Notes: generated by a model from the letters alone, not told the origin. A stretch of 64,000 bases of DNA from Bdellovibrionales bacterium (GCA_965217115.1 OZ244239.1:1152001-1216000), one strand, 5' to 3'; numbered from the stretch's first letter, positions 13,893 through 52,390 are shown. Numbers and translations: made by a program.

Positions 13893-13910
13893 ATACTCTA
13901 TGGAGGTTTT

Positions 13911-29643: not shown

Positions 29644-30986
29644 CTAGCAGCTTTTTTACATTGGCTCCAAAAACTTTTATATTCAGGAAAGACCTCTTCA
29701 AAAAAAATATGTTTTCTTTTATCGTACTCTACAAACATTTTATAGAAATCAGCTTGTAACATTTTTTTCTTTAAAAAATGAATTTTATTTTTTTTCATAT
29801 ACTCCACGACCCTGTTTAAACGATCTATTTCATCAGTATTAAAATTATTTTTTTTCATATATTCTACTGCTAAGGTTAAATAGGAGCTAAATGATTTAGG
29901 CAAAATAAATATGGTTAAATGTTCAGGGTTTCTCAGGTAGGGTGTATCCAAGTTAATTTGATGGCGATCAAAGGTTGTTCGTTGGTAGTGTATTTTCTTA
30001 AGAAGGCCTTTCAAGCCAGGTAAACTTAAAGCATTAACTGTGATCATGTAAGAAATAGTTATGGGCCACTTAACTCTTGTAAGAATTTTTTCGACATTCT
30101 CCATAAATTTTTCATACTGTAAACCAAAGCGAATATATTCAGCCTGCTTACCACAGGTATCTATACTAACGAATAACTGAAACACCTCAACTTTTCCCTC
30201 TAAAGCATTTATCTTCTCAATCAATCGATTAATTAAATTATCTGGCACTGACATATTTGAATTAACCGCTAATGTTAATTTTGGCTTAGGGTTTTTAATA
30301 ATATCATCTAATGTTCTCCACGTATGACTCGACAAGAGAGGCTCTCCTCCTGTGATTCGAAAGACTTTTAATGACTCTGACAGACTTGGCCACCACTTCC
30401 AGAACGCATTGTAATAAAATTCTCGGTCTTCTTTTTTCAAAGGGAGTGTTTTGTTTATTCTAAGATCATTGTATAACCTTGATGTTGGATAAGCTCCGTA
30501 TTGACGAATTTCTTCATGCCATTTACTCGAATAAGAGGGACTACAGTACATACACTTAAGATTACATGTGGACTCAAAAGCTATTTCCACATTAGTCGGG
30601 TTTAACAACGGGCCATCAGAGCTTTTTACAACCTCTTCAAAGTGTGGCCAAGCCCAAAAGCGACGGCTTTTATAAATTCGATCACTAATCTCACCAACTT
30701 TTTCAATGTTCCAGCAGTACTGGCACTCTTTAGGATAAACTCCTGAGATCATCTTCCGACGTTGTTTTCTTTTGTAAGAAGAATTGTGCAAGGCCCTCTC
30801 ATTATCACGGACTTCTTGAAAAGGAACTCGATGAGATCGAACGTGATGACAGCTTTGGGTATTGCCATTATACAAATGCAATGTGACCTGCGTCCATTTC
30901 GCCAAACAAAAAGACGGTGATACTTGATCGAGCTTTTTCTTAACTAGCTCTAGCTTTTCATATTCCATTAAAACAACCCATGGCAT
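29619..30986 (-). CDS. Radical SAM protein with N-terminal twitch-type auxiliary Fe-S domain
   Basis: CNLKCMYC motif, ITGGEP; N-terminal FCLAKW...SCHH...ECQYCW. Confidence 0.88.
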   Translation of the reverse strand: MPWVVLMEYEKLELVKKKLDQVSPSFCLAKWTQVTLHLYNGNTQSCHHVRSHRVPFQEVRDNERALHNSSYKRKQRRKMISGVYPKECQYCWNIEKVGEISDRIYKSRRFWAWPHFEEVVKSSDGPLLNPTNVEIAFESTCNLKCMYCSPSYSSKWHEEIRQYGAYPTSRLYNDLRINKTLPLKKEDREFYYNAFWKWWPSLSESLKVFRITGGEPLLSSHTWRTLDDIIKNPKPKLTLAVNSNMSVPDNLINRLIEKINALEGKVEVFQLFVSIDTCGKQAEYIRFGLQYEKFMENVEKILTRVKWPITISYMITVNALSLPGLKGLLKKIHYQRTTFDRHQINLDTPYLRNPEHLTIFILPKSFSSYLTLAVEYMKKNNFNTDEIDRLNRVVEYMKKNKIHFLKKKMLQADFYKMFVEYDKRKHIFFEEVFPEYKSFWSQCKKAARWFPWIKI

Positions 30987-34755: not shown

Positions 34756-35477
34756 AGAATTCCAATTGTTTGCTGTAACCAATCAGATGGGTTTGTAGAG
34801 ACACTCTCACAACTACTTTTTAGGCACATCCTTATTCTATAACATTCAACTCCACTATTGCAACTCACACAGTCCGGAGAACTACAGCCTGTAGGAACAA
34901 AAAAAGTATTTGTTGGTTGTCCTGTTGACAAACTAGGTAAGTGCGATTCAGGCGGGGTTAAATTGCTCGCATAAGCTTTATCAATATAATTAAACGAACT
35001 GAAGGCATTATAGATACTTGTCCACAGTTTTTTCCATACACTTTGAGAGTCTACATAATTTTTATATTGTTTCCTACCTGTATCAAACTTAACAACCTCA
35101 ACATTAATTCTACTATTGTCTAAACAGATGCTATCGTCTGGGAAAAGACTACTCTCAAAACACTTTATCCCTCCATTCTTCGTAGTATTATTATCAGGCG
35201 TTACACAAAATACTGGGTTAAGATTATTGGGAATGGAGTTCATTCCCGGCGGACAAGTGCCTCCATTGTTTCTTAATGTATCAACACCTACTCGTATCAA
35301 AATTGACATTTGTTCTGAAATCTCGATTGAGGCTATAGCTATTTTAGTCCTATTTAAGAGACGCAAACTCCACAGGAAGCCCCTGTCTGCTTGAAGAATG
35401 ACCAATGTTGCCACTAACATCATTGTAACTGCAATTAAAATAGTAGCTATTCCATTTTCATTTTTTCTTAAGTTCAT
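34752..35477 (-). CDS. Minor pilin, PilX/GspK-like (no Glu5)
   Basis: NENG|IATILIA leader; Cys-rich C-terminus. Confidence 0.65.
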   Translation of the reverse strand: MNLRKNENGIATILIAVTMMLVATLVILQADRGFLWSLRLLNRTKIAIASIEISEQMSILIRVGVDTLRNNGGTCPPGMNSIPNNLNPVFCVTPDNNTTKNGGIKCFESSLFPDDSICLDNSRINVEVVKFDTGRKQYKNYVDSQSVWKKLWTSIYNAFSSFNYIDKAYASNLTPPESHLPSLSTGQPTNTFFVPTGCSSPDCVSCNSGVECYRIRMCLKSSCESVSTNPSDWLQQTIGIL

Positions 35478-35478
35478 A

Positions 35479-36294
35479 TTAAAAACTCGGTAGAATACTA
35501 CGATAAAAATGAATTAAACCGTGTAATCGTGACTTATAGTTACCGATCGTGTACCCATAAGCATTATTTCTTAAGGTAACACTAAAAGCTCGTTTGATAT
35601 CATAAAAATCTGCCATACTAGGGCAAATAGAAGATTCGATCTGTTCCATAGAACAAAAATTACGCGGACTCTTCTGACTACCAAAATAGCGCAAAACCAC
35701 ATTAAACTCGACGCTTATAGGCCGGTTATCTACATGCTGAATTCTCTTAACTTCAAATGCGACTATGTTATCAATAAAATAATCACCATAATCTGGCTCA
35801 ACAACACCGTCACTGTCTTTCGTCACTGTTCCACTAGAATTTCGATGGCCACCTGGATCAATGAAAAGAACCCCCGAAGTGTTCTGCGTCGGCTCAGCAT
35901 AGAAAATACCTGTTGGTAAAATCTGAGCATCATCAGCTCCAACTTCTCTATTAAATACTGCAATAGTTTTTATTCTCGGAAATGGGGGGGAAAGAACAGC
36001 TTCATTCGAAGAAAACTCTCGGATTCTCCCTTCTCCGGTTGTCATATTAAAACTATCCAAATCGGTCGTGCTTAAAGTAACATTCATTGCTTGCTGTAAC
36101 GTCTTTCTTAACTCCAAGTCCAGTCTCATTAAGCTTATCTCTGTATTAATATGATTTCTTATCGACAAGGCACTAGAAAGTTGAATAAGCATCAACGAAT
36201 ATATGCCAAGAATCACAATGGAGGAGACGGTAAGAGCAATTAATAACTCAACCAATGTGGCCCCTTTATTATTAATCAAGACTCGTCTGAGCAT
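35479..36294 (-). CDS. Minor pilin, PilW/GspJ-like
   Basis: NNKG|ATLVELLIAL class III signal. Confidence 0.8.
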   Translation of the reverse strand: MLRRVLINNKGATLVELLIALTVSSIVILGIYSLMLIQLSSALSIRNHINTEISLMRLDLELRKTLQQAMNVTLSTTDLDSFNMTTGEGRIREFSSNEAVLSPPFPRIKTIAVFNREVGADDAQILPTGIFYAEPTQNTSGVLFIDPGGHRNSSGTVTKDSDGVVEPDYGDYFIDNIVAFEVKRIQHVDNRPISVEFNVVLRYFGSQKSPRNFCSMEQIESSICPSMADFYDIKRAFSVTLRNNAYGYTIGNYKSRLHGLIHFYRSILPSF

Positions 36295-36980: not shown

Positions 36981-37077
36981 CTTATCACTGGAAGAGGGAA
37001 TCCTCCCTTTAAATTTTTTGCTGAAGTTTTTTAATTGTTTTAATTTTTTGCATTACAGTGTCCCGAATAAATTGTGT

Positions 37078-37692
37078 ATGAATAAAAGAATAGTCACTAA
37101 TATTTTTATAGCGATAACATTGGGTGGAGCCTATACTGTAGGTTACTTTGAGAAGTATATTGATAGTCGCAATTGGGACGTGACCCCCTATATCTCCGAT
37201 CCTTTATTTAAAGACGACATTCGTTCAACCAGAAATATACGTTTTTGGCCGTTTTCCCGTTTTGCTGTGTTTAGCGATCCCTACGGCAAGAATAATAATG
37301 TCAATAGGGTTGAAGCAAGAGGGGTGACTGAGTCTGGTGAGGAAGTCATTTTGAACATAGCTAAAACATTTTATCCACTGTGGGAAAATGGATTACATAG
37401 GGGGTTAAAAAGATCAATAATTCGTGGATATGACCCCAAGAAGGTATTAGATAGTCTTGGAGGCCTTTACTATAGAAGGTTTATGAAGTACGCATGGCAA
37501 AACAATCCAGAAATGAGAGAACGCTATCCACGTATTACAAAAATTAACTGGTATATTCAATTATGGAAGTTTGGAGAGTGGGTTGATTTTCGTAAAGAGC
37601 ATGAGCATTTTTCAGATTGGTTTGATTTTAAAAAGTACCCTCAAAAACCTATTTATCATAACCTTTATCATACTAGTGTAGTACGTCCGTGA
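37078..37692 (+). CDS. Membrane-anchored protein with WPFS motif, partner of the HTTM protein
   Basis: N-terminal TM, FWPFSRFAVFS; GTGA overlap with the HTTM gene. Confidence 0.6.
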   Translation: MNKRIVTNIFIAITLGGAYTVGYFEKYIDSRNWDVTPYISDPLFKDDIRSTRNIRFWPFSRFAVFSDPYGKNNNVNRVEARGVTESGEEVILNIAKTFYPLWENGLHRGLKRSIIRGYDPKKVLDSLGGLYYRRFMKYAWQNNPEMRERYPRITKINWYIQLWKFGEWVDFRKEHEHFSDWFDFKKYPQKPIYHNLYHTSVVRP

Positions 37693-38621
37693 ACTGGTTT
37701 TTTGAAAAGTGGAATACTTTTTGGTACGCTCCAGCTTCTCCTATAAACTTGGGAGTGTCGCGGGCTTTGTATTGTTTGTTCATGGCGCAGTACACTTGGT
37801 TTTTTGATCGGTTTTCACGTTATTGGTTTGATTTACCCGAAATATGGTGGACACCTAATTGGCTTATGTCTTTCTTTGAGTATATTCCAGTTACAGTGGA
37901 TCAATATTTGTTTTTGCATACGGTTTTAGCAATTCTCTTTTTACTTTCTGGGCTTGGGGTTTTTACTCGCTGGTCACTCTTTTTTTGTGCAATCTTAGCA
38001 ACTTTTATCTATGCAGCTAGAGCTTCATTCATGGAACCTCAACATGACAATCTCGTGGTAGCTCCTATATTGTGGGTTTTTGCTTTATCCAAAAGTGGAG
38101 ACGCATTTGCGCTTGATCGAATTTGGAAAAAAAGAAATTTCCAACTAAGTGGCGAATACACTTGGCCCATAAAATTATTATGCCTTTTGTGTGTAAGTTA
38201 CTATACATCCGCAGGAGTATCAAAAATAGTGACTTCGGGTTGGGAGTGGTTGTGGGGTGATACACTTTTAAATTATTTTATTTTTTCTTACTATAAGACA
38301 GACACTGATTGGATTGGTTTATTTCTAGGGGTTGGTTTGTTTTTTGCTCAGTTTCCACTTTTATGTAAAATTGGAGGGGCATTTACTATTTTTGTAGAAG
38401 TGATTCAACCCTTTGCGATATTTAATAAATGGCTTCGGCGAATTTTTGTTCCCTTAATGGTGCTTTTGCAGTTTGGATTTCATGTGACTTGCGCCAACGG
38501 ATTTTTTAATATGATTGCTGTTTTTTTTTCGTGGATGAATTGGGAATTCTTGTTTAAAAAATTAAATTGGTTTCAATCGAAAAGTTCTTCTGATCTAAAT
38601 AAATCTGAGAATAAGCTCTAA
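37689..38621 (+). CDS. HTTM-domain membrane protein (vitamin-K-dependent carboxylase/SdpB-like TM domain)
   Basis: NLGVSRAL, LGVFTR, WPIKLL...YYTSAGVSK...W..GDTL, FVEV, FHV pattern. Confidence 0.75.
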   Translation: MNWFFEKWNTFWYAPASPINLGVSRALYCLFMAQYTWFFDRFSRYWFDLPEIWWTPNWLMSFFEYIPVTVDQYLFLHTVLAILFLLSGLGVFTRWSLFFCAILATFIYAARASFMEPQHDNLVVAPILWVFALSKSGDAFALDRIWKKRNFQLSGEYTWPIKLLCLLCVSYYTSAGVSKIVTSGWEWLWGDTLLNYFIFSYYKTDTDWIGLFLGVGLFFAQFPLLCKIGGAFTIFVEVIQPFAIFNKWLRRIFVPLMVLLQFGFHVTCANGFFNMIAVFFSWMNWEFLFKKLNWFQSKSSSDLNKSENKL

Positions 38622-38657
38622 GAGAGCGAGAAGCAAGGCGTTACATTTGAACGATTG

Positions 38658-38836
38658 AATGCCTATCTAAAATAGCTACCAAGGTTTAAGCAGCTGTACA
38701 CGCAACCAAAGCTCCAGACTCTATATTTTTATCTACAAACTCTTGGACATTTTGCTTCTTCTCAGGCTCAACACTTAGAGTTTTCTAGAGCCGTTCCCAT
38801 CCTCATCCCCACCAAAGAATGGCAATCTTGGCATTT
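38658..38836 (-). mobile_element. Third IS1595 remnant, inverted
   Basis: 24 bp identical to 26590-26613; 38775-38836 is an inverted copy of 26829-26894; DDE-like fragment VQEFVDKNIESGALV on the minus strand. Confidence 0.75.
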
Positions 38837-39164
38837 TTTTTTATAAGAAGTAACTTGGTAACTCTCCCACAATAGGGCAATATATTGAGGTACAGCTTCG
38901 TGATTCATCGTTGGATTCCTTCGTTGTTTCAATGCCTTAAACATGATGAGTGTGGTAACCCTCAATATGAGGCAATTCGATCGAGGTGAATTAACGTTTC
39001 ACTCACGGGTAGTATTTGACACATGGTGCGCAATGTTATACGGTTTACAGAGTGAGAACTGGTGTTGTCAGCGGGGGAGGGACCTTTTACTCTTCGTGAA
39101 GGTATGAGGTAAAGCTCAGTGGTTTTTATACATTATAGAGAAGTTTTATTCTTTGGAGTGATAA

Positions 39165-40052
39165 ATGAATAGACGTTGTTTTGTCCTTGGTGGCTTGCTT
39201 GGTGGGGTGAGTTTGACTCTCCCTAAAATTTTCGAATTGAACAGATTATCTAATGTGAACAGAGGGAGAACCATTGTTTATGGAGCCTCTCAATCAGGAA
39301 CTCTAAAACTTGCTGCAGCTCTTAAGGGAGAGTATCTTGGGAATTCTAATGCGAGTTATCTAGGAAATTATTTTAATATTTTTGGTTCACTTTTTAAGTC
39401 GGATATTGAATCCACAGCTATTCCTTGCGTGAAAAAGCAGTCTTTCCCAGGCTGTTATAAAACTAATTTTAGATTAGAACGGAATAGAATTGTTGAGTTT
39501 AAAGATTTTGTTAAAGAACCGTTCTCAGAGAGGAAGGAGCTTCTAAGAAGAGAGGAATTACTTAGAAAGTCTAATGAATCCCATCTTATTGTCGTCTCTA
39601 GTTGGGTAGACGCTCATGATGACGTTGGAGTGTGTGATCGATTACTAAATAATCCGAAAAATAATATTTATGTGGTTGTGCCGAGTAATATTGAGAAACT
39701 TTTACTTAGGCAAGCTCTAGCTGATGTCACAGATATTTGGTCCAGGCCAGTTGGTCTACCTAAACTAGATCCAGAAGGTTTAACAGCTCCTTCGTCAATT
39801 GTTTTTGAAGATGTTAAATTGGAATTACTTGCATTCAAACGAAGACTTTCGATTCCCCATGCTAAATATGTCTTTTCTTCGCAATTAGAAGATAAGAGAG
39901 ATATTTTGCAAGTTATTGGCAAGAATGGTTCTGGCAGCTGGAATGATAAAGAGAACTTTGAACCTGAGTTTAGAAAAAAGCTGCGAGATTATTTCACTAA
40001 TCGTAAAGAAATACTTACTATGGTTTCTAAACTTGAAAGAGTAATTGCTTAG
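39165..40052 (+). CDS. Tat-signal protein, distantly Stf0-type sulfotransferase-like
   Basis: MNRRCFVLGG twin-arginine leader; IVYGASQSGT resembles the 5'-PAPS loop; LLRQALADVTDIW resembles the 3'-PAPS segment. Confidence 0.45.
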   Translation: MNRRCFVLGGLLGGVSLTLPKIFELNRLSNVNRGRTIVYGASQSGTLKLAAALKGEYLGNSNASYLGNYFNIFGSLFKSDIESTAIPCVKKQSFPGCYKTNFRLERNRIVEFKDFVKEPFSERKELLRREELLRKSNESHLIVVSSWVDAHDDVGVCDRLLNNPKNNIYVVVPSNIEKLLLRQALADVTDIWSRPVGLPKLDPEGLTAPSSIVFEDVKLELLAFKRRLSIPHAKYVFSSQLEDKRDILQVIGKNGSGSWNDKENFEPEFRKKLRDYFTNRKEILTMVSKLERVIA

Positions 40053-40118
40053 ATCTAGTGGCGACGGACGTTTCGAGTATTTGAAAATAATTAGTAAAGA
40101 TGTCTTTTGGACTTAATA

Positions 40119-41207
40119 ATGGCTGTGAGTGTAAGAGTTAACGAAGATGTTTTTTGGACTTATAACGGTGATAAATATAAGAATAAATGGCATCTCTTTA
40201 GTAGTACAAAAGGCAGTACCCAAGGAGTGGGGTTTCATTACCATGATGAGTCTTTTTCCTTATTTGATTGGAGTAAAGAACCTGAGGCCTCTTGGGAGAC
40301 TATTCTTAAATCAAGAGCAGAACAGTTAAGACAAAAATATGGCTATATAAGATTATTTTATAGCGGAGGTGTTGATTCTCAAACAATGCTTGAAACCTTT
40401 ATTAAGAACAAGATCTTCTTAGATGAAATTCTTGTATTTAGAGGGTCAGTATGGACAGATGATTTAGAGAGTGACCCCGCGGAAGTTGAGGTGACACAGG
40501 TTGCTCTTCCCTATCTTAAATCAATTAAAAACTTAATTCCTCGTACAAAGATAACTGTACTTAAAACCTCTGTAGATAGACTCACTAACGAGGTTAGCGA
40601 AAAGTATTTCTATGAAGAGAGTACCTTTGCTTTAAGGGCTTGGAGAGAAAAGCACCTCTATGCATTTCATCCTGAATTATATAAGCCTTTTGAGAAAGGA
40701 CTTTATCATTGTGATTTGAGGGGCGGAGATAAACCAAGGGTCCTCAAAATGGACAACAAATACTTTATGGCCATGTGGGATGGAAGTCGTATTTGGGAAG
40801 TTGGAGATCGGTTTTTAGAAAATTTCTATCTGTCTCCTGAGTTTCCCGAAATTCACTCAAAGCAATGTCACATGATAAAAAACTTTATAAAAATGGATTC
40901 TAAAGACGGCGAGTGTATTAAAAAGTATTTTGATGTCTTTGACGGAGGAGAAATTGAAACTATTAATAAAATTTGTAGAGTGCCGAGATTTAAAGAAATT
41001 AATTTAGGAAAAGGAACTAGCGGTGTAAGTTCTCGTAAACAGATAATCGTTTTGAACAGTGCAAAAAAGTACAATAAAAAATTATATGAGCTATGGATGA
41101 GTTTTATTCGCAATGAAGGGGTGGTTTACCCTCAACGCTTCAACAATAATGATATTTGGAGTGATTTTGTCGGTGTTTTGTCCAAAAAATATTGGCTTGG
41201 TGAGTAA
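40119..41207 (+). CDS. PP-loop (adenine nucleotide alpha-hydrolase-like) protein
   Basis: RLFYSGGVDS motif; no glutaminase domain. Confidence 0.7.
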   Translation: MAVSVRVNEDVFWTYNGDKYKNKWHLFSSTKGSTQGVGFHYHDESFSLFDWSKEPEASWETILKSRAEQLRQKYGYIRLFYSGGVDSQTMLETFIKNKIFLDEILVFRGSVWTDDLESDPAEVEVTQVALPYLKSIKNLIPRTKITVLKTSVDRLTNEVSEKYFYEESTFALRAWREKHLYAFHPELYKPFEKGLYHCDLRGGDKPRVLKMDNKYFMAMWDGSRIWEVGDRFLENFYLSPEFPEIHSKQCHMIKNFIKMDSKDGECIKKYFDVFDGGEIETINKICRVPRFKEINLGKGTSGVSSRKQIIVLNSAKKYNKKLYELWMSFIRNEGVVYPQRFNNNDIWSDFVGVLSKKYWLGE

Positions 41208-41208
41208 A

Positions 41209-41835
41209 ATGAGCTATGGATTTTTGCAGAATTACCTTTCGCAAACTCATTCCAGAATATCTGCGAATGAGTATTTTCAAGTCGTTTGTGAAACAGAAAA
41301 GAAAATAGCACGCAGAATTTTAAACAATGAATTATCTCTTGAAGATTCAAGTTTTTATAAAAAAGCTTATGACAGGGTTAAAGGAATGGAACAATTCCTT
41401 GAGAAAAAAAATGTTGTTGTTATAGGGGCAGGAGCGATTCCAGCAACTCTTATTTTTGCACAAAAATCAGGTCTTATAAAATCAGGAATTGGATTGGATA
41501 TAGATAAAATTGCCGTAAGTCTCGCGAAAGAGTTGACTCAACATTTAAATGTTAATGAACTTTCATATTTAAATATTAACGGATTAGATTATGATTTTAC
41601 TAATTCAGATGTTGTGTTTATTGCAAATCTAGTTAGAGGTAAATCTAAATTGTTAAACAGACTCTCGTCTCAGCTTAAATTTGGTGATCATATTATACTG
41701 CGAGAACCATGGGGTAAAGGTGTTTATCTTGCTGAATCAGCGATAGAATCAATTGGTAGTTCTTGGAAAGTCATTGGTCAAGATTCTCCCTGTCCTTATT
41801 TTTATTCACAAAGCTTTTATTTAAGGAAAAATTAA
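41209..41835 (+). CDS. Nicotianamine-synthase/CntL-like class I SAM-dependent enzyme
   Basis: VVIGAGAIPATLI (cf. NAS IGSGPLPLT), GLDID, DVVFIANLV..K, ILR. Start moved to ATG 41209. Confidence 0.65.
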   Translation: MSYGFLQNYLSQTHSRISANEYFQVVCETEKKIARRILNNELSLEDSSFYKKAYDRVKGMEQFLEKKNVVVIGAGAIPATLIFAQKSGLIKSGIGLDIDKIAVSLAKELTQHLNVNELSYLNINGLDYDFTNSDVVFIANLVRGKSKLLNRLSSQLKFGDHIILREPWGKGVYLAESAIESIGSSWKVIGQDSPCPYFYSQSFYLRKN

Positions 41836-42710
41836 TGATCTTGATTACAGGTGGGAATGGTTTCATTGGTAGAGAGATCATGAAACAAATTAATTTAGAC
41901 TGTATTAGTTTAGATCTTAGTAATCCTGAAGGAGTTGAGAGATTATATCGTGGAGGAACTTTAGACACAGAATTACTAGAAGACCTTTTTCGCAAGTTTC
42001 AATTTAGCTGTGTTATTCATCTAGGAATGACATCTCTTTTGAAGGATGTCAAAAATGATCAAGACAAGGCCAAGCTGTCGATAGTGGAGGGAACTAGAAA
42101 TATAATATCAGTAATGAAAAAGCATAGTTGTAATCGCTTAATTTTTATGTCTACAAGTATGGTCTATGGAAATTATTATAATAAAGTTGTTAATGAAGAC
42201 AGTCTCTGTCAACCAAGTGAGCCTTATGGACGTTTTAAACTAATTGCCGAAGATCTTGTGAAGTTGTCATTGGCTAGTCCACCCTTCGAATATATCATAA
42301 TTAGACCTACAGCTGTTTATGGGAAAAACGATGGGCAAAAAAGAGTTCTCAGCAAAATGATAGAAAACGCTAAATGCGGAAAACTCATAGAAATTAACGG
42401 AAAAGAAACAGCCCTTGATTTCACACATGTCAGTGAGGTTGCGAGTGCTATAATTACATCAGCCTTAAAGACTGAGATTAAGAATGAGACCTTTAATATT
42501 TCTAGAGGTAAAAGAAGGAGTTTAATTGAAGTTGTCATGATTCTAAAAAAATACTTTCCAGGCACAAAGTTTATTATAAATGATAAGGAGAAAGACAAAC
42601 CTGTTAGAGGCGAAATAAATGTAGAAAAGGCCCACAATCTATTAGGTTTTGAACCAAAAATTGAAATAGAGGATGGAATTAAAATGATGTTAGATGGAGA
42701 AGTTTTTTGA
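41835..42710 (+). CDS. NAD-dependent epimerase/dehydratase (extended SDR)
   Basis: TGGNGFIG, STSMVYG, YGRFK, LDFTHV. Confidence 0.9.
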   Translation: MILITGGNGFIGREIMKQINLDCISLDLSNPEGVERLYRGGTLDTELLEDLFRKFQFSCVIHLGMTSLLKDVKNDQDKAKLSIVEGTRNIISVMKKHSCNRLIFMSTSMVYGNYYNKVVNEDSLCQPSEPYGRFKLIAEDLVKLSLASPPFEYIIIRPTAVYGKNDGQKRVLSKMIENAKCGKLIEINGKETALDFTHVSEVASAIITSALKTEIKNETFNISRGKRRSLIEVVMILKKYFPGTKFIINDKEKDKPVRGEINVEKAHNLLGFEPKIEIEDGIKMMLDGEVF

Positions 42711-43801
42711 ATATCTCATTTTTTGGCAATGACAGGCAATTTCAATCGTTAAAAAAAGAATGGCTTTCCAGGGCGGAAGCCGTATGGGCTTCAGGGCAGT
42801 TCTTTTTTGGACCTCAAGTCGAAAAACTAGAACATCGTTTAGCAACGATGTGTCAACGCAAGTACGCTATTGCTTTGGCTTCATGTACCGATGCTCTAGC
42901 TATAGCCACTGAATATTTAGATCTTGAGGCCAAGTCGAAAGTGCTTATTACAAATTATTCATTCTCTGCTTCTGCGGCCCCAATTTTAAAGAATAATTTA
43001 GTTCCAAGTTTTGTTGATATAAACAGACAATTGAACCATCCAACGTACAAAAATTATCAGAAGTTTTGGGATAAAGAATGTAAAGCGGTGATAGCAGTTA
43101 GTCTTTACGGGAATTGCTACGCAATGGATGAAACAGAGATTTGGGCCGACAAGAAAAAAATTCCATTGATTGAGGATGCTGCGCAATCTTTTGGCTCTTC
43201 TCTTGGTGACAGGCCTGCTGGTAGTTTCGGAATAGCCTCATGTATTAGTTTTGACCCGACAAAAATAATTGCGGCATCGTCTCTAGCAGGAGCGCTTTTA
43301 ACGGATGATCAAGAATTATATGAGTTTGCTCTTAGGGCCAGATTTCATGGGAAAAATAGAAATAACCAAGTTTCTCAACTTGGAGGTAAAAGCCTTATGT
43401 CTTCAGTAGAGGCTGAAATTCTTCAATTGAAGCTTGATCATTTGGATTCTTGGCTAAATAAACGAAACGAAATTGCGAATACTTATATAGATAGCTTGTC
43501 AGGTGTAGGAGACCTAATTTTGCCAACTGTCTTAGAGGGCGGCTCTCATACTTTCCATAAGTTTGTAATTGCTACATGTGAAAGAGATCGTTTAGCTGAA
43601 TATCTAATGTTAGCGGGGATTGTGGTTCGTAGACATTATAAGAGTCTTCTTTCACAAGAGCCTGTTTTTTCAAAATATAGTTCTTCTACTCCAAATGCTT
43701 CTGAGGCTTCTTATAGAAACCTATCTTTACCTTTGTATCAAGAGCTGAGAGACGAGGAAATTAAATATATAATAGATACGATTTTAAGGTTCTTTGGATA
43801 A
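42707..43801 (+). CDS. DegT/DnrJ/EryC1/StrS PLP-dependent sugar aminotransferase
   Basis: SCTDAL, IEDAAQSFG, SFDPTK (PLP lysine), LSLPLY. Confidence 0.92.
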   Translation: MNISFFGNDRQFQSLKKEWLSRAEAVWASGQFFFGPQVEKLEHRLATMCQRKYAIALASCTDALAIATEYLDLEAKSKVLITNYSFSASAAPILKNNLVPSFVDINRQLNHPTYKNYQKFWDKECKAVIAVSLYGNCYAMDETEIWADKKKIPLIEDAAQSFGSSLGDRPAGSFGIASCISFDPTKIIAASSLAGALLTDDQELYEFALRARFHGKNRNNQVSQLGGKSLMSSVEAEILQLKLDHLDSWLNKRNEIANTYIDSLSGVGDLILPTVLEGGSHTFHKFVIATCERDRLAEYLMLAGIVVRRHYKSLLSQEPVFSKYSSSTPNASEASYRNLSLPLYQELRDEEIKYIIDTILRFFG

Positions 43802-43804
43802 AAA

Positions 43805-45910
43805 ATGTTAAAAGTCGTTATACCTCTCATTTTAATTTCTGGTTCGTCTGCTCTAGGCTTGGAGGTTTTTTGGCTTAGAAGCTTGAGTCACATTTTAGGA
43901 AGTACAAGCGTAGCCGTTTCAATAGTTTTTGGTATGTTCCTTTTTTCTCTTTCTCTAGGCTCATTACTGTCAACATTTTGGAATGGGCCATCATCTTTTT
44001 TTAATCGTTACCCTATTTTAAGTTTCGGAATTTTGGAATCTCTAGGAGTTCTCTTAGGGGTGTTTAGTAATTTTTTAGCTTTTTATCATGAGGACCTTTT
44101 TTTTAATTTCATAAACCTAATTAGAAATGATTTTATTTCCAGCATAGCTATTTCTTTTTTCTTTATTACACCTTCTGTATTCCTTTTGGGAATGGGCTTC
44201 CCAGTTATCTTGAGTTCTTTAGAAAAAAAACAAAATCTCAGCACTATTTATTCACTCAATACCATTGGTGGCGCCATTGGCACACTTGCTTACGGGATAA
44301 TCTTTCCTTATTTTCTAGGTTATGGCCTGTCTCTTCTAATTTTATGTTCTTTTACACTAATATTACTGTTCATCTCCATTCGAAATGGAAAGGAAGAGTC
44401 TCTTGCAGTTTCTGAGATAGATGAAATTCGATTTCCTAGAGAAAAAGGCTTCTTCTTAGCTCTATTCTCAGGGTTTGTCTTCATGATGGGTGAAATTGCA
44501 GGAGATCGTCTCGTTAGAATGATATTGGGAGACAGGTCTTACATTTCACTGATAACATTATTCTTTTTTCTTATCGTAATTTCTATGGCAGCTGGAATTA
44601 AATCTTATATAAATAATCTAAAAAAGGTTGTAATTTTAAGTCTTTTTCTTTGTTTATTCTCACTTGTTGTCATTCTTCTTTTTAAAAATAGTGCATTATT
44701 AGTTACTAGGGATTATCAAGTATTGAATTCAAAAAAATTGATTTTCCTTTTATTTGGTATCTGTCCTCTTTTTATGGGTCTCGGATTAGTCTTTCCCTCT
44801 TGTTTAGATTTGATAAATAGCTCTGTGCAAAAGAGATCTAAACTAGCTTTTTATTTAAGTGGGAACACTTTTATGGCGCTCGTAGCGTCACTGATTACAA
44901 CACACTTATTGTTTTCTGTAATAGGTATTCATGGTATTTTTGCTGTACTGACAATGGCGCTAGTTATTTTTCCTTTATTAATGAATCAATGTAAAGCTGC
45001 TTTGCTGATTTTACCAATTTCAATTATCTTGTCTTTATTTTATTTAAAGTCACCATTTAGTATTTCAGAAAGAAAAAATGTTCTTTATCAGTCAGAGTCT
45101 CAATATTCACACTTTAGCATCATAGAAAAAGAGGGTTTCGAAGAAACATATAGTGGTAATACAAGGTTAATCGCCCCATATATAGCAAAAAACTTAGAAC
45201 ATGCTCAACAGGCTCTAGCTTACTTTCCTGCATTGTATAAAAAAAATGTTGAAAATAGTTTAGTTATTGGTGCCGGATACGGTATTACAATAGACGCATT
45301 TTTAAAAGTCTCAACCGAGTCCACCTATGTAGTAGAAATATTAAATGAGATTATCTTCAATACAAATAGATATAAAGAACTAAATAATAACTGGCAAAGG
45401 AATAAAAAAATTAAATTACAAATTACAGATGGTGTGCGATACGTCAGTATAACTGATAAGAAGTTTGATATTATTTCCGTCAGTTTGGATCATCCTTACT
45501 CATTCAATGGCTCTAGAACTATCACCAAGGAGTTCTATCAACATGTGTCTGAAAAACTTGTAAAAAATGGGATTTATAGTCAAATGATTTGGGGAGAACA
45601 TTTACCAGAGATTTTGGCAACTGTAAAAACGGTATTTCCCTATATAAAAATAATGCCCGCTTATTCTGATTCTGACTTTATTATTATTGCTTCAAAAGAA
45701 GCTTTAGTTAAACAAAGGAGTGATCAAGCTTTTTCAAAGGTTTGGAAAAAACTCAATGACAAACGAAAGCTAAGAAAAAACTTGCAGATCGGAAGAGAGG
45801 CTTTAAAAAAAATAAGCTCTCAGCCACATCGTTTTATAATTTCTCGCTTACATCCTATTATTGAATTTGGAAATCACGAGTCTACGGGCTTTTTTTGGAT
45901 CCGAAGGTAA
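43805..45910 (+). CDS. Multi-TM protein fused to spermidine-synthase-like SAM domain
   Basis: ISGSSALGLEVFWLR, YSLNTIGGAIG TM repeats; LVIGAGYGIT, VVEI, DGVRYV, FDII, EFY. Confidence 0.85.
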   Translation: MLKVVIPLILISGSSALGLEVFWLRSLSHILGSTSVAVSIVFGMFLFSLSLGSLLSTFWNGPSSFFNRYPILSFGILESLGVLLGVFSNFLAFYHEDLFFNFINLIRNDFISSIAISFFFITPSVFLLGMGFPVILSSLEKKQNLSTIYSLNTIGGAIGTLAYGIIFPYFLGYGLSLLILCSFTLILLFISIRNGKEESLAVSEIDEIRFPREKGFFLALFSGFVFMMGEIAGDRLVRMILGDRSYISLITLFFFLIVISMAAGIKSYINNLKKVVILSLFLCLFSLVVILLFKNSALLVTRDYQVLNSKKLIFLLFGICPLFMGLGLVFPSCLDLINSSVQKRSKLAFYLSGNTFMALVASLITTHLLFSVIGIHGIFAVLTMALVIFPLLMNQCKAALLILPISIILSLFYLKSPFSISERKNVLYQSESQYSHFSIIEKEGFEETYSGNTRLIAPYIAKNLEHAQQALAYFPALYKKNVENSLVIGAGYGITIDAFLKVSTESTYVVEILNEIIFNTNRYKELNNNWQRNKKIKLQITDGVRYVSITDKKFDIISVSLDHPYSFNGSRTITKEFYQHVSEKLVKNGIYSQMIWGEHLPEILATVKTVFPYIKIMPAYSDSDFIIIASKEALVKQRSDQAFSKVWKKLNDKRKLRKNLQIGREALKKISSQPHRFIISRLHPIIEFGNHESTGFFWIRR

Positions 45911-46114: not shown

Positions 46115-47464
46115 TTATGTAAAGTAAAATTTCATCGCTTCATAAATATTTGAGTCTAAATTTTGATGATAGAAAAGTTGTGCCGACTTCCTATGCAAGT
46201 TTATTTTTTTATCAGAATCATTCATATACTCCGATCTGTTTTTTTCGTGAAAAAGAGCATAGACATTATCTGCTAGAAGATGAAACTTATTTCCCGCTAA
46301 AAACAATCGATAACCAAGCTCAACATCCTCAAAACTATAAAAACAAAAACTTTTTGAAAAGCCACCGGTTTTTTCAAAGAACTTTTTTTTAACTGAAAAA
46401 CAAAACGTAGAGGCGTATCTCCATCCAAATGGTATGTCATTCCAGTTTTTAGTTTTATTTTGAAAATCTTCAAAATAGTTATTTGACCGGCTGTAGACTT
46501 GTTCAGTTACTTTTTCAAGGGTTTCACCTCTATAGAGTGCATTTGTTGCTTGTTCATTGAGATGAAGTCTTCGAGGTTGAACAACGTCAAAGTTTTCGTG
46601 CGACTTTAAAAGGTTACTCAAAAAATCATTCGTCAAAAGAGTATCTGCATCTAAGAAAAGAATAATTTCTCCATTTGCTTTCAAAGCGCCAAAGTTTCTT
46701 GCGACCGTTACCCTGCATTTATTGTCTCCCATAGATCTACTAGAGGGCCTAGGGAGGTAGTAAAAACTTTTATTTTCAATGCTTAAGTCATCGTAAATTG
46801 ACTTACAACTATCATCTGAACCGTCATCGATAATTAACACTTCAAATAGATTTTTATCTATAGATTGCTTAGACAGAGTTTTTAAAGTTAGATTAAGTTC
46901 TTTATTATGGTTATAAACAGGGATTACTATGGAGAGCAAACGCTTGCTTTGATTTTTAATATCAATCACTGAAGGCTGAGGGGAACGATCTTCAAAATCA
47001 CTCCATCTTGTCTCAAAAATTCGACCAGTAAGGGGAGGTAATATTTCACATTGATGATTCCGAGCACTAAAACTTTCTACTAATGTTGGGTCCCATGTAT
47101 CTAATGGGAAAAAGAAATGAGCCCTCAGAAGCTCTTTTGGGAATTCACAGTCTTTATCCATATGGATGGTAAAAATGATATTATTTTTTTGTGAAAGTAG
47201 CTTCATTTTTTCCCAATCATCCATTGAGCTATCAATTATGATATTAAATAGCAATCGAGGATGTTCTAGAGCGTCAGATATTTTAAATTCTTCCAGGTGT
47301 CTATCAATACAGTCTCCAGGGTTTTTATTCTTTAAATCACTTAAGCATCCAAAGTTTTTATTAGTCTCTAATGTAGAGAAATCAGGTCCTGTTTCTATGG
47401 ATTGAGATATGCAATAAGGGTGTTTACAAGAACTTGCTTCGACTCTTTGAAAATAGTTAGACAT
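46115..47464 (-). CDS. GT2 glycosyltransferase with degenerate Cys-containing N-terminal domain; paralog of 31607-33235
   Basis: SIVIPVYN, IDDGS, RSMGDNKCRVTVARNFG, FLDAD, FEDVELG; N-terminal CKHPYC. Confidence 0.85.
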   Translation of the reverse strand: MSNYFQRVEASSCKHPYCISQSIETGPDFSTLETNKNFGCLSDLKNKNPGDCIDRHLEEFKISDALEHPRLLFNIIIDSSMDDWEKMKLLSQKNNIIFTIHMDKDCEFPKELLRAHFFFPLDTWDPTLVESFSARNHQCEILPPLTGRIFETRWSDFEDRSPQPSVIDIKNQSKRLLSIVIPVYNHNKELNLTLKTLSKQSIDKNLFEVLIIDDGSDDSCKSIYDDLSIENKSFYYLPRPSSRSMGDNKCRVTVARNFGALKANGEIILFLDADTLLTNDFLSNLLKSHENFDVVQPRRLHLNEQATNALYRGETLEKVTEQVYSRSNNYFEDFQNKTKNWNDIPFGWRYASTFCFSVKKKFFEKTGGFSKSFCFYSFEDVELGYRLFLAGNKFHLLADNVYALFHEKNRSEYMNDSDKKINLHRKSAQLFYHQNLDSNIYEAMKFYFT

Positions 47465-48293
47465 TATACAAAAGCTCTTTTATATGCAAACTTTGCTTGC
47501 AACTGTACTCGGGACATGTAAAGCCAAAGTCTAAGAGTTCTTTCGATGCATTGCTCAGCTGCTCTTCGATGGAGTGCTTTTTTATTCTCTCAAAACCATC
47601 TCTAAACCAGTCATGGTTACTAATTTTTGACAATTCATCTGGACAGTCTTTGAATTTAAAGCCATGTATGCTGCCCATTCTAGCTCCAAGTAAGACATAT
47701 TCACCAAACAAGCTGTCTCTGCCAATCGATGTCCATACTTTTAACCGACTCATTGTTCTGTGGTCTGGTTGAGTTCCGGCATAGGCATTTGTTCGACTGG
47801 CTAATTTAGAAGATTCCCTAAATCCACTCTTCCAAGAAATATAGGGAGAGGTATTAAAGCAAGTAATCGATGCAATTTCAGGCTGAATATAAAAATCTTC
47901 TGTAGCTACAGATAAAGTAAAATCAACAACGTCTAGATCTTGAAAATCCCTAACCAATTGAGTATTGAATAAATGTACTGATCCATATCCATACACAAGC
48001 CCATTAACTCGATTTCGACATCGATATACATGAACTCTCTTATCGACTTCACCTTGAAAGTTCTCAATATCAAAGTTGAAATTATCTAGTAACTGGCTAT
48101 CCCCATCCATTGTAAAGAAATGACTGGTTTCTGAAATTTCGGCGGCTTTCTTCCAAGCTTTGGCTATGCCATTAACTTTATGTACTCTTTTGGTGTTTGG
48201 GTAAATCGACTTAACTCTTTCCCAGTTTTGCTCAGCTTCTGGTTCGTCGTAGCTAATAAAAATTAAATCGTATTTCATTGTTTCTTTCAGCAT
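47457..48293 (-). CDS. Divergent GT-A-like protein (ISYDEP family)
   Basis: FISYDEP..E.NW, RVHKVNG, FFTMDGD (DxD), NGLVYGYG, WKSGFRE. Confidence 0.55.
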   Translation of the reverse strand: MLKETMKYDLIFISYDEPEAEQNWERVKSIYPNTKRVHKVNGIAKAWKKAAEISETSHFFTMDGDSQLLDNFNFDIENFQGEVDKRVHVYRCRNRVNGLVYGYGSVHLFNTQLVRDFQDLDVVDFTLSVATEDFYIQPEIASITCFNTSPYISWKSGFRESSKLASRTNAYAGTQPDHRTMSRLKVWTSIGRDSLFGEYVLLGARMGSIHGFKFKDCPDELSKISNHDWFRDGFERIKKHSIEEQLSNASKELLDFGFTCPEYSCKQSLHIKELLYNV

Positions 48294-48768: not shown

Positions 48769-49974
48769 TTAAGGAATCCATGAGAGGTGAGTGGATAGGT
48801 TTAGAGAGACATCAAATTTCTTCAGAACCTTCCTTGAATTCGGTGAATAAAGAATAATTCCTTGGGTCGAATCACTCAGAGCGAGAATATTGTCGGGCAG
48901 CAGGCACAGGCCTTGAATATTTGAAAGCCCTAGTTCAAAACCTGAGTTAACAGATTTCACGACTCCAGAGATAGCATCTAGGCACAACAGAGTATTCGAA
49001 CTACTACAAGTAACATACACTTTACCAGCTTTTTTGTTCACTGCAAAAGAGAGTTGCCTGCGTTGGAAATTCTGGTACTCAGGTAAAGACTTAATTTGAG
49101 ACGAGTTCATTCCTACCTTTAAAATCGGTGTTGATATACCTATTCTCTTTAGTTTGTACTCTTGGCTTGAAATAGGAAACCAATTAGATTTTACTCCTAT
49201 CTTTTTTAGATGACTATCCAATAACTTTCGTTCGTCAATATTAATATATTGGGCAGTCCCTACAAAGACGTGTTCTTCGCTATAAACACCGAGATGAGTT
49301 GGTGTTGCATTTATTTGGGGATTATGACTGCGGATAATTTTCCCCGATTCAGTATCGATGAAAAACACAGAACCTTTATTTGGTTCATATGAATAACCTG
49401 TTTTTGACTTTTTTGGAACAATTGGGGTGACTAGTAATTTTTCTCGAACCAATTTTAGGTCATGAGGGTACCCTGGAAGTTCTATCATTTTAATAAACTT
49501 GAAGTTTTTTTTAAATACACCAATAGCCCCTCTATCGCGGAGATAATCCGTTTTTTTTGGAGAAAGACTGATGTAGATTTCGTTGCTACCAGAGCAAAAA
49601 TGTCCTGTAGAAATATATCCTTTTGGAAGCTTTAAATGAGCTTTGTGCTTAAATGTTCTTCTGTCGACAATCGAAAGAGTTTTGGCTTTGTAGCCAGAAG
49701 CCAGAATGTGATCTTTGTCTATGGCATCAGCCATGTGTCCAAACTTGATAGGTACTACTGTTTGGTTAATTTTTCCAGTATCGAGTTTAATCTGTGTAAG
49801 AAGAGAAAAGTCACCATTTTTAGTAAAACCATGCTCTCCTTCACCAATAGTTAAAAGCTCTCCTTCAAAAGGTTTAGAAGGTTTAGAAGGAGGCGAAAAA
49901 CCAGCAGCGTCAGGAAAAGAGTAAAAAGCTAAAGGAAGGAGATGTAATTTTCTTAAAAGAGACCTGCGATTCAT
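48769..49974 (-). CDS. Tat-exported beta-propeller, DUF1513-like
   Basis: MNRRSLL leader; repeated His motifs GHM, GHF, PHDL, PTHL, STHL; GAIGV. Confidence 0.6.
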   Translation of the reverse strand: MNRRSLLRKLHLLPLAFYSFPDAAGFSPPSKPSKPFEGELLTIGEGEHGFTKNGDFSLLTQIKLDTGKINQTVVPIKFGHMADAIDKDHILASGYKAKTLSIVDRRTFKHKAHLKLPKGYISTGHFCSGSNEIYISLSPKKTDYLRDRGAIGVFKKNFKFIKMIELPGYPHDLKLVREKLLVTPIVPKKSKTGYSYEPNKGSVFFIDTESGKIIRSHNPQINATPTHLGVYSEEHVFVGTAQYINIDERKLLDSHLKKIGVKSNWFPISSQEYKLKRIGISTPILKVGMNSSQIKSLPEYQNFQRRQLSFAVNKKAGKVYVTCSSSNTLLCLDAISGVVKSVNSGFELGLSNIQGLCLLPDNILALSDSTQGIILYSPNSRKVLKKFDVSLNLSTHLSWIP

Positions 49975-50095: not shown

Positions 50096-52390
50096 ATGAC
50101 GAAATTTCTATTCTTTATTATTTTTATTTCAGGAATTAGCGGTCTTTCTTATGAGTTAATTTACACCCGAATCATCTCTTATTATTTTGGAGATTTATAC
50201 CTAACAATTTTCACAGTTTTAACTTCTGTTTTCTTAGGTTTAGCCTTGGGCTATAAATACTCCTACAAGTGGGTAAAACAGCTTTGGGTTATAGAGGCTA
50301 TGTTAGGGGTTTATGCTTTTCTTATGGCTTTTGTTTTTCATTTTTTAGGCGTTGATGTCTTGGCTTATATCCCATCTTTTTTACTAGGTAGCAAAACTGT
50401 ATTATCCTCATTAGTCATATTCACACCCATGTTTCTGGTCGGATTTTCTATACCTATCTTATCTATTTACGCAAGTCAGGGAAATACTAACTCTGAAGAG
50501 AAAAGTAGTACAGTTTTTCCTTATGTCTACGGACTCTATACTATAGGCTCTGCCCTAGCTCTAATATTATTGGAGCTTTTTTTCTTGGAAGACTGGGGAA
50601 TCACCACTGTTCTTATTGCATCAGGCCTGCTAAATATGTTTGTTGCTGTATATTTATATTTTACAAAGAAAACCTTTGTACCTGAGAAGGATCCATCTCC
50701 AAAAGAGAAAACAGTACATCCTCTACCTTTCTTCTTAGGAATATTAAGTATGATGTTTCAGTATTTCTTTATAGAAACTAGTTTTAGAATTTTCGGCCCC
50801 TCCATCTCTAGCTTTACTTTTGTTTTATCTTCGGCGCTATGTGGAGTAGCATTTGGTTCTTTTTTAACTACAGTTACTAATTTTAAATGGCATAGCTTTT
50901 TAACTATTTTTCTATATTTAGGCTTATTTCCTTTTTTAATTTTCTCATACGTTATTTATTGGTGGGCTGATTTGAGTACGTACTTAAAAAGTACTTATCT
51001 AATTAATTTAGAGCTTATCAAGATACTATTTATCTTTTTCATGAGCATAGGAATGTTCACTTTATTTGGCGCTATTGTCCCTTTATTTTTAAAATGGAAT
51101 AAAAAAGCAAGTGTGCAAAGAGTATTATTTTCTAACTCTCTAGGTAACGCTTTAGGAATACCATTGGCTGGAATAATTCTATATTCCATCTTCGACTTAC
51201 GTCTTACCCTAATCTTAATTGTGTGCTCAATACTGTTCATCAGCTATGGTGTTATAAATAAAATCTACACCTTCTTTGCATTGTTTTCTATTATGAGTTT
51301 AGTTCTCTTTTGGCCGTCTAGAGAGCTATATGTAGGCTCTTCACGTTTAGTATCTCAAACAGCAACAGAGATTAAACAGTATGTCAAAGGCATGAAGAAC
51401 ATACAACACATTAGGTACTTAGGAAACGAAACTACATTATATGAAACTGATCGCTATTATGGACGCGAAGGACGCCTTATGGTTTTCCATAACGGCTACC
51501 GTACCCTTGCTCTTAAAAAACGCAAGGGTATAGTGAAACATGAATCTTTTTTACCTGCGATATCTGCATGGTATAGCCAAAAACACAATAACGCCTTAGT
51601 TCTAGGTTTAGGTACTGGTGTCACAGTGTCTACAACTGCAGATGCATATAAGAATGTAAAAGTATTTGAAATCAACCCAGGAACATTTGAAATGATTCAA
51701 ATACTAAAAGACTATAATGATAATATCAGTAATAAAAAAAATATTGATGTCGTTTTGCAAGATGCTTTTATTGGAACTTATTTAGAGAAAAACGAAAGTT
51801 ATGATGCGATTATCAGCTCTACCTCCCCTCTGTATTATTATTCTTCTAGTAAATTATATTCTAAGGATTTTTTACAAATTGTAAAAAACAAACTAACCAA
51901 AGGTGGCGTTTTTGTCACATGGTATAGTTCAGAGATTTCCATACATAAAACAAACATTCTGCACAACACCTTAAACAGTGTCTTTAAAACTTGTAAGTCT
52001 TTTATTATTAAAGCAAGCTATCACATTGTACTTTGCGGGGAGCGCTTAACGCTGAATGAACGTTATAACTTCTCTCATATAAAAAACAATATCGTGAAGA
52101 AAGTTTTTTCCCACGCCCCTTACCTAGAGGCAACACTTGATAAAAATTTGCTTAAAAAAAATCATTGGCAAGGTGAAGTCAATACTTTAAATAAATTAAT
52201 TACCAAGAGCCCTTATTTTTCTGTAGATGACCCTAGAAAAAGATATCATGTATATAACAAGGAGGTTTTACACATGGTACACAGCTCTCCCTATCCAAGA
52301 AAAAAACTTTGCGCTGCAATGAAATTTTTTAGTTTTAAAATATTTAGAAATCACTCTTCACTCTCTCCTTGTTTATCCTTAAAACAATAG
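50096..52390 (+). CDS. Second multi-TM protein fused to spermidine-synthase-like SAM domain
   Basis: ISGISGLSYELIYTR; LVLGLGTGVT, FEINP, DAF, YDAII, LTKGGVFVTW. Confidence 0.85.
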   Translation: MTKFLFFIIFISGISGLSYELIYTRIISYYFGDLYLTIFTVLTSVFLGLALGYKYSYKWVKQLWVIEAMLGVYAFLMAFVFHFLGVDVLAYIPSFLLGSKTVLSSLVIFTPMFLVGFSIPILSIYASQGNTNSEEKSSTVFPYVYGLYTIGSALALILLELFFLEDWGITTVLIASGLLNMFVAVYLYFTKKTFVPEKDPSPKEKTVHPLPFFLGILSMMFQYFFIETSFRIFGPSISSFTFVLSSALCGVAFGSFLTTVTNFKWHSFLTIFLYLGLFPFLIFSYVIYWWADLSTYLKSTYLINLELIKILFIFFMSIGMFTLFGAIVPLFLKWNKKASVQRVLFSNSLGNALGIPLAGIILYSIFDLRLTLILIVCSILFISYGVINKIYTFFALFSIMSLVLFWPSRELYVGSSRLVSQTATEIKQYVKGMKNIQHIRYLGNETTLYETDRYYGREGRLMVFHNGYRTLALKKRKGIVKHESFLPAISAWYSQKHNNALVLGLGTGVTVSTTADAYKNVKVFEINPGTFEMIQILKDYNDNISNKKNIDVVLQDAFIGTYLEKNESYDAIISSTSPLYYYSSSKLYSKDFLQIVKNKLTKGGVFVTWYSSEISIHKTNILHNTLNSVFKTCKSFIIKASYHIVLCGERLTLNERYNFSHIKNNIVKKVFSHAPYLEATLDKNLLKKNHWQGEVNTLNKLITKSPYFSVDDPRKRYHVYNKEVLHMVHSSPYPRKKLCAAMKFFSFKIFRNHSSLSPCLSLKQ

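Follow-up and report, generated by a model that had tools for sequence, protein, structure and literature searches.

The window analysed here, a 64,000-nucleotide stretch of a Bdellovibrionales bacterium genome (GCA_965217115.1 OZ244239.1:1152001-1216000), carries a short member of the nicotianamine synthase (NAS)/CntL superfamily within a set of six co-directional genes (39165-45910; Table 1) located in an island of glycan genes. The protein of 208 amino acids (aa) encoded at 41209-41835 is assigned to this superfamily, and not to the ordinary methyltransferases, by profile, fold and catalytic glutamate. Its association with a PP-loop protein, a short-chain dehydrogenase/reductase (SDR) and a DegT aminotransferase is real and conserved, and represents a new context for a known kind of enzyme. 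We read the six genes as a tailoring cassette within an island that would make a surface glycan or glycoconjugate in a Bdellovibrio/Bacteriovorax-like bacterium; together with the individual steps proposed below, this reading is plausible, if short of probable.

The NAS/CntL relationship of the 208-aa protein is supported by independent sequence and structure comparisons. With the single sequence as query, a phmmer search of all PDB sequences returned CntL alone below an E-value of 1e-3, the next match standing at 0.1. An exhaustive HMMER search of 1.84 billion representative sequences recovered 291 relatives at E≤1e-3, and a profile built from 61 relatives matched MtNAS at 1.5e-16 and CntL at 1.4e-15, against 4.5e-4 for the best methyltransferase. 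Pfam NAS (PF03059) was matched at E≤1e-3 by 31 of the 61 relatives and Methyltransf_31 by 28, and a relative from the same clade (P0003, 40% identity) scored 46 bits on Pfam NAS, over the threshold of 27.1 bits. The Foldseek comparison of NAS/CntL with plain methyltransferases, which the original prediction, made from the sequence alone, had proposed as a check on its NAS/CntL-like label, gave MtNAS or CntL at each of ranks 1-10 (E 5.6e-14 to 2.4e-11). The two-part fold typical of NAS, consisting of N-terminal helices and a Rossmann domain, is present as well.

The catalytic glutamate is also retained, completing the support for that label. E30 is near-invariant in the family and invariant in the subfamily alignment of 15 sequences, in a column occupied by Q in the MtNAS E81Q structure (3fpg) and by E in the wild type (3fpe). 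According to the available portions of two sources, E81 and Y107 take a proton from the acceptor amine, and AtNAS1 mutated at the corresponding residues (E77, Y106) is inactive (PMC10248798, PMC10491745), the glutamate equivalent to E81 being essential in NAS (PMC10248798). The short NAS-like subfamily further shares an invariant GxGxxPxT motif, and a quick maximum-likelihood tree groups the 208-aa protein with other short sequences (about 190-220 aa) in a 10-member clade with a Shimodaira-Hasegawa-like approximate likelihood ratio test (SH-aLRT) value of 99, leaving 53 mostly longer relatives outside. From this family membership, the enzyme is predicted to transfer the 3-amino-3-carboxypropyl group of S-adenosylmethionine (SAM).

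The gene immediately upstream encodes the PP-loop protein. Its SGGVDS motif, the basis on which it had been labelled, is present, and S82, G83, G84, D86 and S87 (SGGxDS) are invariant in 22 of 22 aligned family members. The protein matched no Pfam, NCBIfam or PHROG family; 26 relatives were found in a collection of 5.8 billion proteins, and 18 of them (itself included) stand at 48% identity or more. In Foldseek, its structural model (predicted local distance difference test score, pLDDT, 87.5) matched PP-loop enzymes only (LarE, TilS), and in a wide structural scan the best matches were of the AsnB/beta-lactam synthetase type, spanning 264-281 residues, with other PP-loop enzymes scoring no more than 7.6. 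Both the adenine-nucleotide alpha-hydrolase fold and the AsnB-type C-terminal helical part were found. An N-terminal glutaminase (GATase) domain was not: about 55 residues precede the PP-loop domain in a protein of 362 aa, and Pfam gave no GATase match. The protein is thus most similar to AsnB and beta-lactam synthetase in their synthetase domain, and by analogy with these enzymes it is predicted to adenylate a carboxylate that would then be attacked by nitrogen; fold and motif are observed features, from which we infer a substrate of this kind. Its ESM Atlas neighbours are unnamed phage protein clusters, and despite this no relative was found in viral contigs or the phage collection. A further protein, P0034 (655 aa), carries SGGVDS in its N-terminal domain, is NAS-like in its C-terminal domain, and is a possible Rosetta-stone fusion. 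Since the hhalign match between its N-terminal domain and the PP-loop family is confined to 35 columns around the motif (probability 20%), it serves as a lead and not as proof of a common family.

The labels SDR epimerase and DegT aminotransferase for the fourth and fifth genes were likewise upheld, by matches to Pfam Epimerase at 1.4e-33 and to Pfam DegT at 5.2e-75 (253 bits). Gene 4 encodes an extended SDR of the epimerase/dehydratase type acting on nucleoside-diphosphate (NDP) sugars, with TGGNGFIG and YGRFK visible in the translation and UDP-glucose 4-epimerases as its nearest solved relatives (8e-18). The best solved relatives of the gene 5 product are 7b0d (2.3e-47), QdtB (3.7e-40) and WbpE (7e-39), the last two being 3-aminotransferases. 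The lysine of its SFDPTK motif, which binds pyridoxal phosphate in this family, aligns with that of SFYPTK in 7b0d.

The short NAS-like clade is narrowly distributed, and its neighbourhood recurs. Among 301 genomes of the window's order it was found in the window's own genome only; it occurs in 4 of 201 genomes from a different family within the phylum (G215, G247, G672 and G613), on a metagenome contig (L071) and on a 4.7-kb contig of a metagenome-assembled genome (MAG) that encodes the homologue P0002. Seven cases were compared, namely the window, the P0002/P0153 contig, these four genomes and L071. A PP-loop homologue shares the genome or contig with the clade-type NAS-like gene in all seven, and the two genes adjoin in four, namely the window, G613, L071 and the MAG contig, on which P0153 and P0002 carry consecutive locus tags. 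In five of the seven, genes for SDR and DegT homologues (32-47% identity) are no more than 10 kb away from the NAS-like gene. G215, G247 and G672 have a homologue of gene 1 immediately 5' of the NAS-like gene, and L071 has the order GT2 (family 2 glycosyltransferase), PP-loop, NAS-like, DegT. Both long-form relatives that were examined, in G134 (L035) and in a Flavobacteriaceae MAG (L002), have no partner genes within 8-10 kb, and G134 has no PP-loop homologue. A second conserved block, not present in the window, lies 3' of the NAS-like gene in three of the cases, G215, G247 and L071 (L033 12097-18443, L034 6267-12688 and L071 12762-19981); its genes encode, besides a 244-aa GT2 and a DCC1-like thiol-disulfide oxidoreductase, proteins of about 470, about 550 and about 940 aa. 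In G215 this block is followed by a gene for a DtxR-family repressor, about 7 kb from the NAS-like gene.

In the window itself the six genes lie as originally described, and genes 2-6 are joined by overlaps or by spacers of at most 3 bp, read directly from the sequence. The TAA that ends gene 2 at 41207 is separated by one base from the ATG of gene 3 at 41209; genes 3 and 4 overlap by 1 bp in TAATG (41833-41837), genes 4 and 5 by 4 bp in TTGA (42707-42710), and a 3-bp spacer precedes gene 6. Between genes 1 and 2 the gap is 66 bp if counted from ATG 40119 and 54 bp from TTG 40107. The start giving 208 aa for gene 3 is supported by the P0002 homologue of its product (63% identity), which is likewise 208 aa long, and the shorter gene 4 start by the alignment of the N-terminal TGGNGFIG of the SDR. 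Purine runs resembling Shine-Dalgarno sequences lie upstream of the starts, such as GGAG 6 nt before the ATG of gene 1. Promoter and terminator consensus patterns occurred as often as in shuffled controls, that is, at chance level. Judged by junction spacing, the genes at 39165-45910 are probably co-transcribed as an operon. The 543-bp gap 5' of gene 1 (38622-39164) holds no open reading frame (ORF) of 80 aa or more; Rfam gave no match there, a single sub-threshold U8 match being taken as chance.

These observations suggest a pathway in which the SDR and the DegT aminotransferase, going by their families, would make an NDP-amino sugar. The NAS-like enzyme would place the 3-amino-3-carboxypropyl (aminobutyrate) group of SAM on a primary amine, releasing methylthioadenosine, and the acceptor would most likely be the amine of the NDP-amino sugar. 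The PP-loop enzyme could adenylate a carboxylate, either that of the new aminobutyrate group or that of a uronic acid, and a nitrogen nucleophile would resolve the adenylate to an amide or lactam. The GT2 enzymes, with the family-less protein h47, would incorporate the sugar so modified into a polymer, and the two degenerate spermidine-synthase-like membrane proteins, hypA and memB could act at the membrane. The product would then be an aminocarboxypropylated and subsequently amidated or cyclised amino sugar. A bolder version is doubtful as a whole: that the short NAS-family clade left metal-chelator biosynthesis and moves aminobutyrate onto a sugar amine, that its PP-loop partner forms a lactam or amide, the lactam being an N-substituted 3-aminopyrrolidinone and an undescribed sugar decoration on the surface of predatory bacteria, and that the degenerate membrane 'spermidine synthases' likewise transfer SAM-derived alkyl groups to this polymer, at the membrane.

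Several observations weigh against the tailoring-cassette reading. By its own family-model scores the 208-aa protein is ambiguous, with 24.7 bits on Pfam NAS (threshold 27.1) and 27.5 bits on Methyltransf_31, just over the threshold of 27; the PDB phmmer search and the profile of its relatives settle the matter. It also scores 26.3 bits on the CntL equivalog model NCBIfam NF033601, far below the cut-off of 350. The equivalent of MtNAS Y107 is not clearly conserved: Y107 falls one column off the family's Y54 in a profile hidden Markov model (HMM) alignment, and Y50 or Y54 is found in most of the 15 subfamily sequences, with neither in those of the G215 type. The STSMVYG motif of gene 4 seems closer to the epimerase motif than to the dehydratase motif, and the keto sugar needed for the DegT step has no evident source. 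Conservation of gene order, which the original prediction had named as a check, was borne out for content and neighbourhood and failed for the order itself, which is rearranged in every related genome, with some partners divergent. In G613 one contig carries the NAS-like and PP-loop genes and another the SDR, DegT and h47 genes, along with GT2 genes and two for radical SAM proteins. No NAS-like gene accompanies the PP-loop, DegT, SDR, h47 and radical SAM genes of G282, and G361, which likewise has none, has only the PP-loop and h47 genes of the set. The PP-loop enzyme is thus not strictly dependent on the NAS-like product, and the set in G282 indicates that the NAS-like enzyme is an accessory tailoring step, an optional addition to an older module and not its core.

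Among the alternatives, one keeps the NAS-like chemistry and changes the acceptor: as with CntL, this would be an amine or amino acid in free form, and the PP-loop ligase would form an amide between the product and either the amino sugar or a uronic acid. All characterised NAS-like enzymes use amino-acid acceptors, as far as the available portions of the two sources extend (PMC10491745, PMC10248798). The PP-loop protein is closest to enzymes that adenylate carboxylates and form amides, a UDP-glucose/GDP-mannose dehydrogenase is encoded at 20743-22059, and the presence in G282 and G361 of a PP-loop gene but no NAS-like gene fits a ligase with a substrate of its own. No gene that would supply the amino acid, such as a racemase, was present among the ORFs scanned, and this alternative, which is computationally indistinguishable from the tailoring of the sugar amine, retains a small though appreciable chance. 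The borderline Methyltransf_31 score would agree with an ordinary SAM-dependent N- or O-methyltransferase acting on the amino sugar, the product gaining 14 Da as is common in sugar clusters; given the profile of the relatives and the structural ranking, we consider it unlikely.

Still less probable is a reading in which the product is a small molecule resembling nicotianamine or a polyamine, secreted through the membrane domains of the spermidine-synthase-like proteins, with the glycosyltransferases as unrelated neighbours. A match to the NCBIfam 'fused MFS/spermidine synthase' model (23.8 bits, below its 40-bit cut-off), the origin of NAS-like enzymes so far in chelator pathways only, going by the available part of PMC10491745, and the DtxR-family metal repressor of G215 all point in this direction. 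Against it, the spermidine-synthase-like domains do not have the canonical catalytic signature, and in other genomes the set is accompanied by GT2 genes, h47 and the twitch-domain radical SAM gene. Moreover, no opine dehydrogenase, racemase or dedicated exporter was present among the window ORFs scanned (10.7-60 kb), in agreement with the earlier statement that metallophore genes are not visible here. A whole-genome search for the staphylopine dehydrogenase family PF10100, run without a positive control, was negative, and no DtxR-type regulator is encoded in the complete genome. On the strength of these scans of the window and the genome, we do not read the cassette as a metallophore pathway. 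Least probable is a SAM lyase or cyclase such as an azetidine-2-carboxylate synthase of the AzeJ/VioH type, which also has a class I methyltransferase-like fold and acts on the aminocarboxypropyl part of SAM (PMC10491745, in its available portion), as no AzeJ/VioH chain was among the Foldseek or VIA-align matches listed and NAS/CntL came clearly first.

The last gene of the set was described as a membrane spermidine-synthase-like fusion, and this held for its architecture and not for an aminopropyltransferase role. About 12-14 hydrophobic segments in residues 1-414 of its product precede a Spermine_synth domain (residues 468-621, 2.3e-12, 47.3 bits against a Pfam threshold of 22.9). When aligned with the SpeE of the same genome, it has GAGYGI and VSLDHP in place of GGGDGG and DSTDP, the signature residues of aminopropyltransferases. 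A second polytopic protein of this kind, encoded downstream, has GLGTGV and SSTSP at these positions, and both aspartates of DSTDP are gone. Going by these motifs, both membrane proteins appear to be spermidine-synthase-like in fold only. Homologues of the first (29-38% identity) are found in G215, G247, G613 and L071, and of the second in G215 and G613. The idea that these proteins have no supply of decarboxylated SAM was ruled out by a PF01536 SAM decarboxylase and a canonical SpeE, which are encoded side by side elsewhere in the genome (G000 C1:1942108-1944470), outside the window. This decarboxylase is the only one in the genome, from which PF02675 is absent, and PF01536 was matched in none of 14 control prokaryotes.

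The first gene of the set had been called a sulfotransferase-like protein with a twin-arginine (Tat) signal, and the two parts of this description fared differently. The N-terminus (MNRRCFVLGG...LTLP; in the window, MNRRCFVLGGLLGGVSLTLP) carries the RR motif and a single hydrophobic segment at residues 5-23, and P0182 and P0183, its two closest relatives, share this signal (MKRRQFIYGGLAAGAFLSLP), which is absent from the three more distant orthologues of G215, G247 and G672. The sulfotransferase label is unsupported, being a weak language-model lead: ESM Atlas gave a similarity of 0.82-0.83 to clusters bearing sulfotransferases, where values below 0.9 are leads only according to the tool. No sulfotransferase match was found with the sequence in Pfam, NCBIfam or PDB, nor with a profile of four orthologues in PDB or Pfam, and the protein has no PHROG match. 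A GxSQSG loop is invariant in the family, which comprises only 5 proteins in the 5.8-billion-protein collection; the 3'-phosphoadenosine-5'-phosphosulfate-binding loop of sulfotransferases has K or R in place of its Q.

The six genes lie in an island of about 32 kb (20.7-52.4 kb) that encodes at least 7 GT2 proteins, a UDP-glucose/GDP-mannose dehydrogenase, three further SDRs, a twitch-domain radical SAM protein and two pilin-like proteins (Table 1). The dehydrogenase gene forms the left end of the island as far as examined, and its product is a possible source of a uronic-acid carboxylate. Homologues of the radical SAM protein lie beside h47, DegT and SDR genes on contig C86 of G613 (38% and 34% identity) and occur in G282 (25%). 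The most conserved companion is h47, which is 52-62% identical in G215, G247, G672, G613 and G282 and 37% in G361, and has no match in Pfam, NCBIfam, PHROG or PDB. A 'hypothetical protein' with 37% identity to h47 also occurs in two places in the record of the 344-kb jumbo Ralstonia phage RsoM2USA. A 45% homologue of the GT2 that follows gene 6 stands directly upstream of the PP-loop gene in L071 (7375-8856).

Table 1. Positions in the window of the six genes and of other genes of the island, with alternative starts and family evidence.
Gene	Position	Strand	Length	Evidence or remark
UDP-glucose/GDP-mannose dehydrogenase	20743-22059	+		UDPG_MGDP_dh_N 1.7e-58, central 2.8e-32, C-terminal 8.2e-32
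SDR	22041-22988			Pfam scan
GT2	23584-24291			Pfam scan
GT2	24214-25281			Pfam scan
SDR	25293-26339			Pfam scan
Twitch-domain radical SAM	29619-30986	-		NCBIfam NF033640 307.6 bits, cut-off 170
hypA	37018-37692	+		no Pfam or NCBIfam match; 54% homologue in L071
memB, multi-pass membrane protein	37689-38621	+		hydrophobic segments; 51% homologue in L071
Gene 1	39165-40052	+	295 aa	
Gene 2, PP-loop	40119-41207	+	362 aa	mechanical ORF from TTG 40107
Gene 3, NAS/CntL-like	41209-41835	+	208 aa	mechanical ORF from 41113
Gene 4, SDR	41835-42710	+	291 aa	mechanical ORF from 41763
Gene 5, DegT	42707-43801	+	364 aa	TTG start
Gene 6, membrane spermidine-synthase-like	43805-45910	+	701 aa	
GT2	46115-47464	-		Glycos_transf_2 8.3e-23
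h47	47457-48293	-	278 aa	family-less; DxD-like MDGDS motif
h48	48769-49974	-	401 aa	sub-threshold DUF1513 and NHL matches only
Second polytopic membrane spermidine-synthase-like	50096-52390	+		Spermine_synth 26.4 bits

The genes flanking the six are also found together elsewhere. On L071 (180-5029), homologues of hypA, memB and h48 (51-57% identity) follow the membrane spermidine-synthase-like gene, the hypA homologue lying directly downstream of it and the 57% homologue of h48 ending the string. In G215 and G613, the same position is occupied by a small protein and a membrane protein matching Pfam HTTM. BLASTP similarity between memB and the HTTM protein of G215 covers 37 residues only (E 3e-4), and memB may be HTTM-like. 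PHROGs returned nothing for six family-less proteins of the window. The island is flanked (10750-15569 and 33304-36294) by genes for a fused ParA/MinD-like and T2SSE ATPase, T2SSF, an RHS-repeat protein and two pilin-like (N_methyl) proteins, and glycosylation of pilin or of a surface protein is a possible use of its glycan.

Taken together, these results suggest that the NAS/CntL family, known from metal chelators, has been given a new use in the decoration of a surface sugar. According to its available portion, a 2023 review of non-methyl SAM chemistry places NAS-like enzymes in metallophore pathways only (PMC10491745), and every characterised member makes a metal chelator from amino acids, to the extent that the two sources cover them (PMC10248798, PMC10491745). 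In our literature search, neither a NAS-like enzyme in a glycan setting nor the present association of genes was described. If the preferred reading is correct, aminocarboxypropyl transfer from SAM would be extended to carbohydrates, and a function would be available for the PP-loop and h47 families and possibly for the widespread membrane-fused spermidine-synthase-like proteins. It would also define a structure on the surface of Bdellovibrio-like predators, for which the chemistry of the envelope is important when they meet their prey.

In comparison with known systems, the two membrane proteins resemble fused membrane/spermidine synthases (NCBIfam NF037959, PRK03612) in having a polytopic N-terminal region followed by a C-terminal Spermine_synth domain, and differ from them in the loss of GGGDGG in both copies and, in the second copy, of the DSTDP aspartates as well. 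The PP-loop protein, at 362 aa, differs from asparagine synthetase B, beta-lactam synthetase and carbapenam synthetase in having no N-terminal nucleophile (Ntn) glutaminase domain; at the sequence level it matches no Pfam or NCBIfam model, and its identity to the structural matches is 9-11%. The 208-aa protein is shorter than MtNAS (PDB 3fpe) and the plant and fungal NAS of PF03059 (about 200 aa against about 265-280), its alignment beginning at MtNAS residue 29, and is set apart from known NAS by its sub-threshold Pfam score, the uncertain Tyr107 equivalent and its separate clade of 10 (SH-aLRT 99). Unlike CntL in the staphylopine, pseudopaline and yersinopine operons, it has no CntM, CntK or Cnt transporter genes nearby among the ORFs scanned. 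Its partner is a PP-loop adenylating enzyme in place of the opine dehydrogenase, and its neighbours, in contrast to the metal-homeostasis genes around known NAS, are glycan genes.

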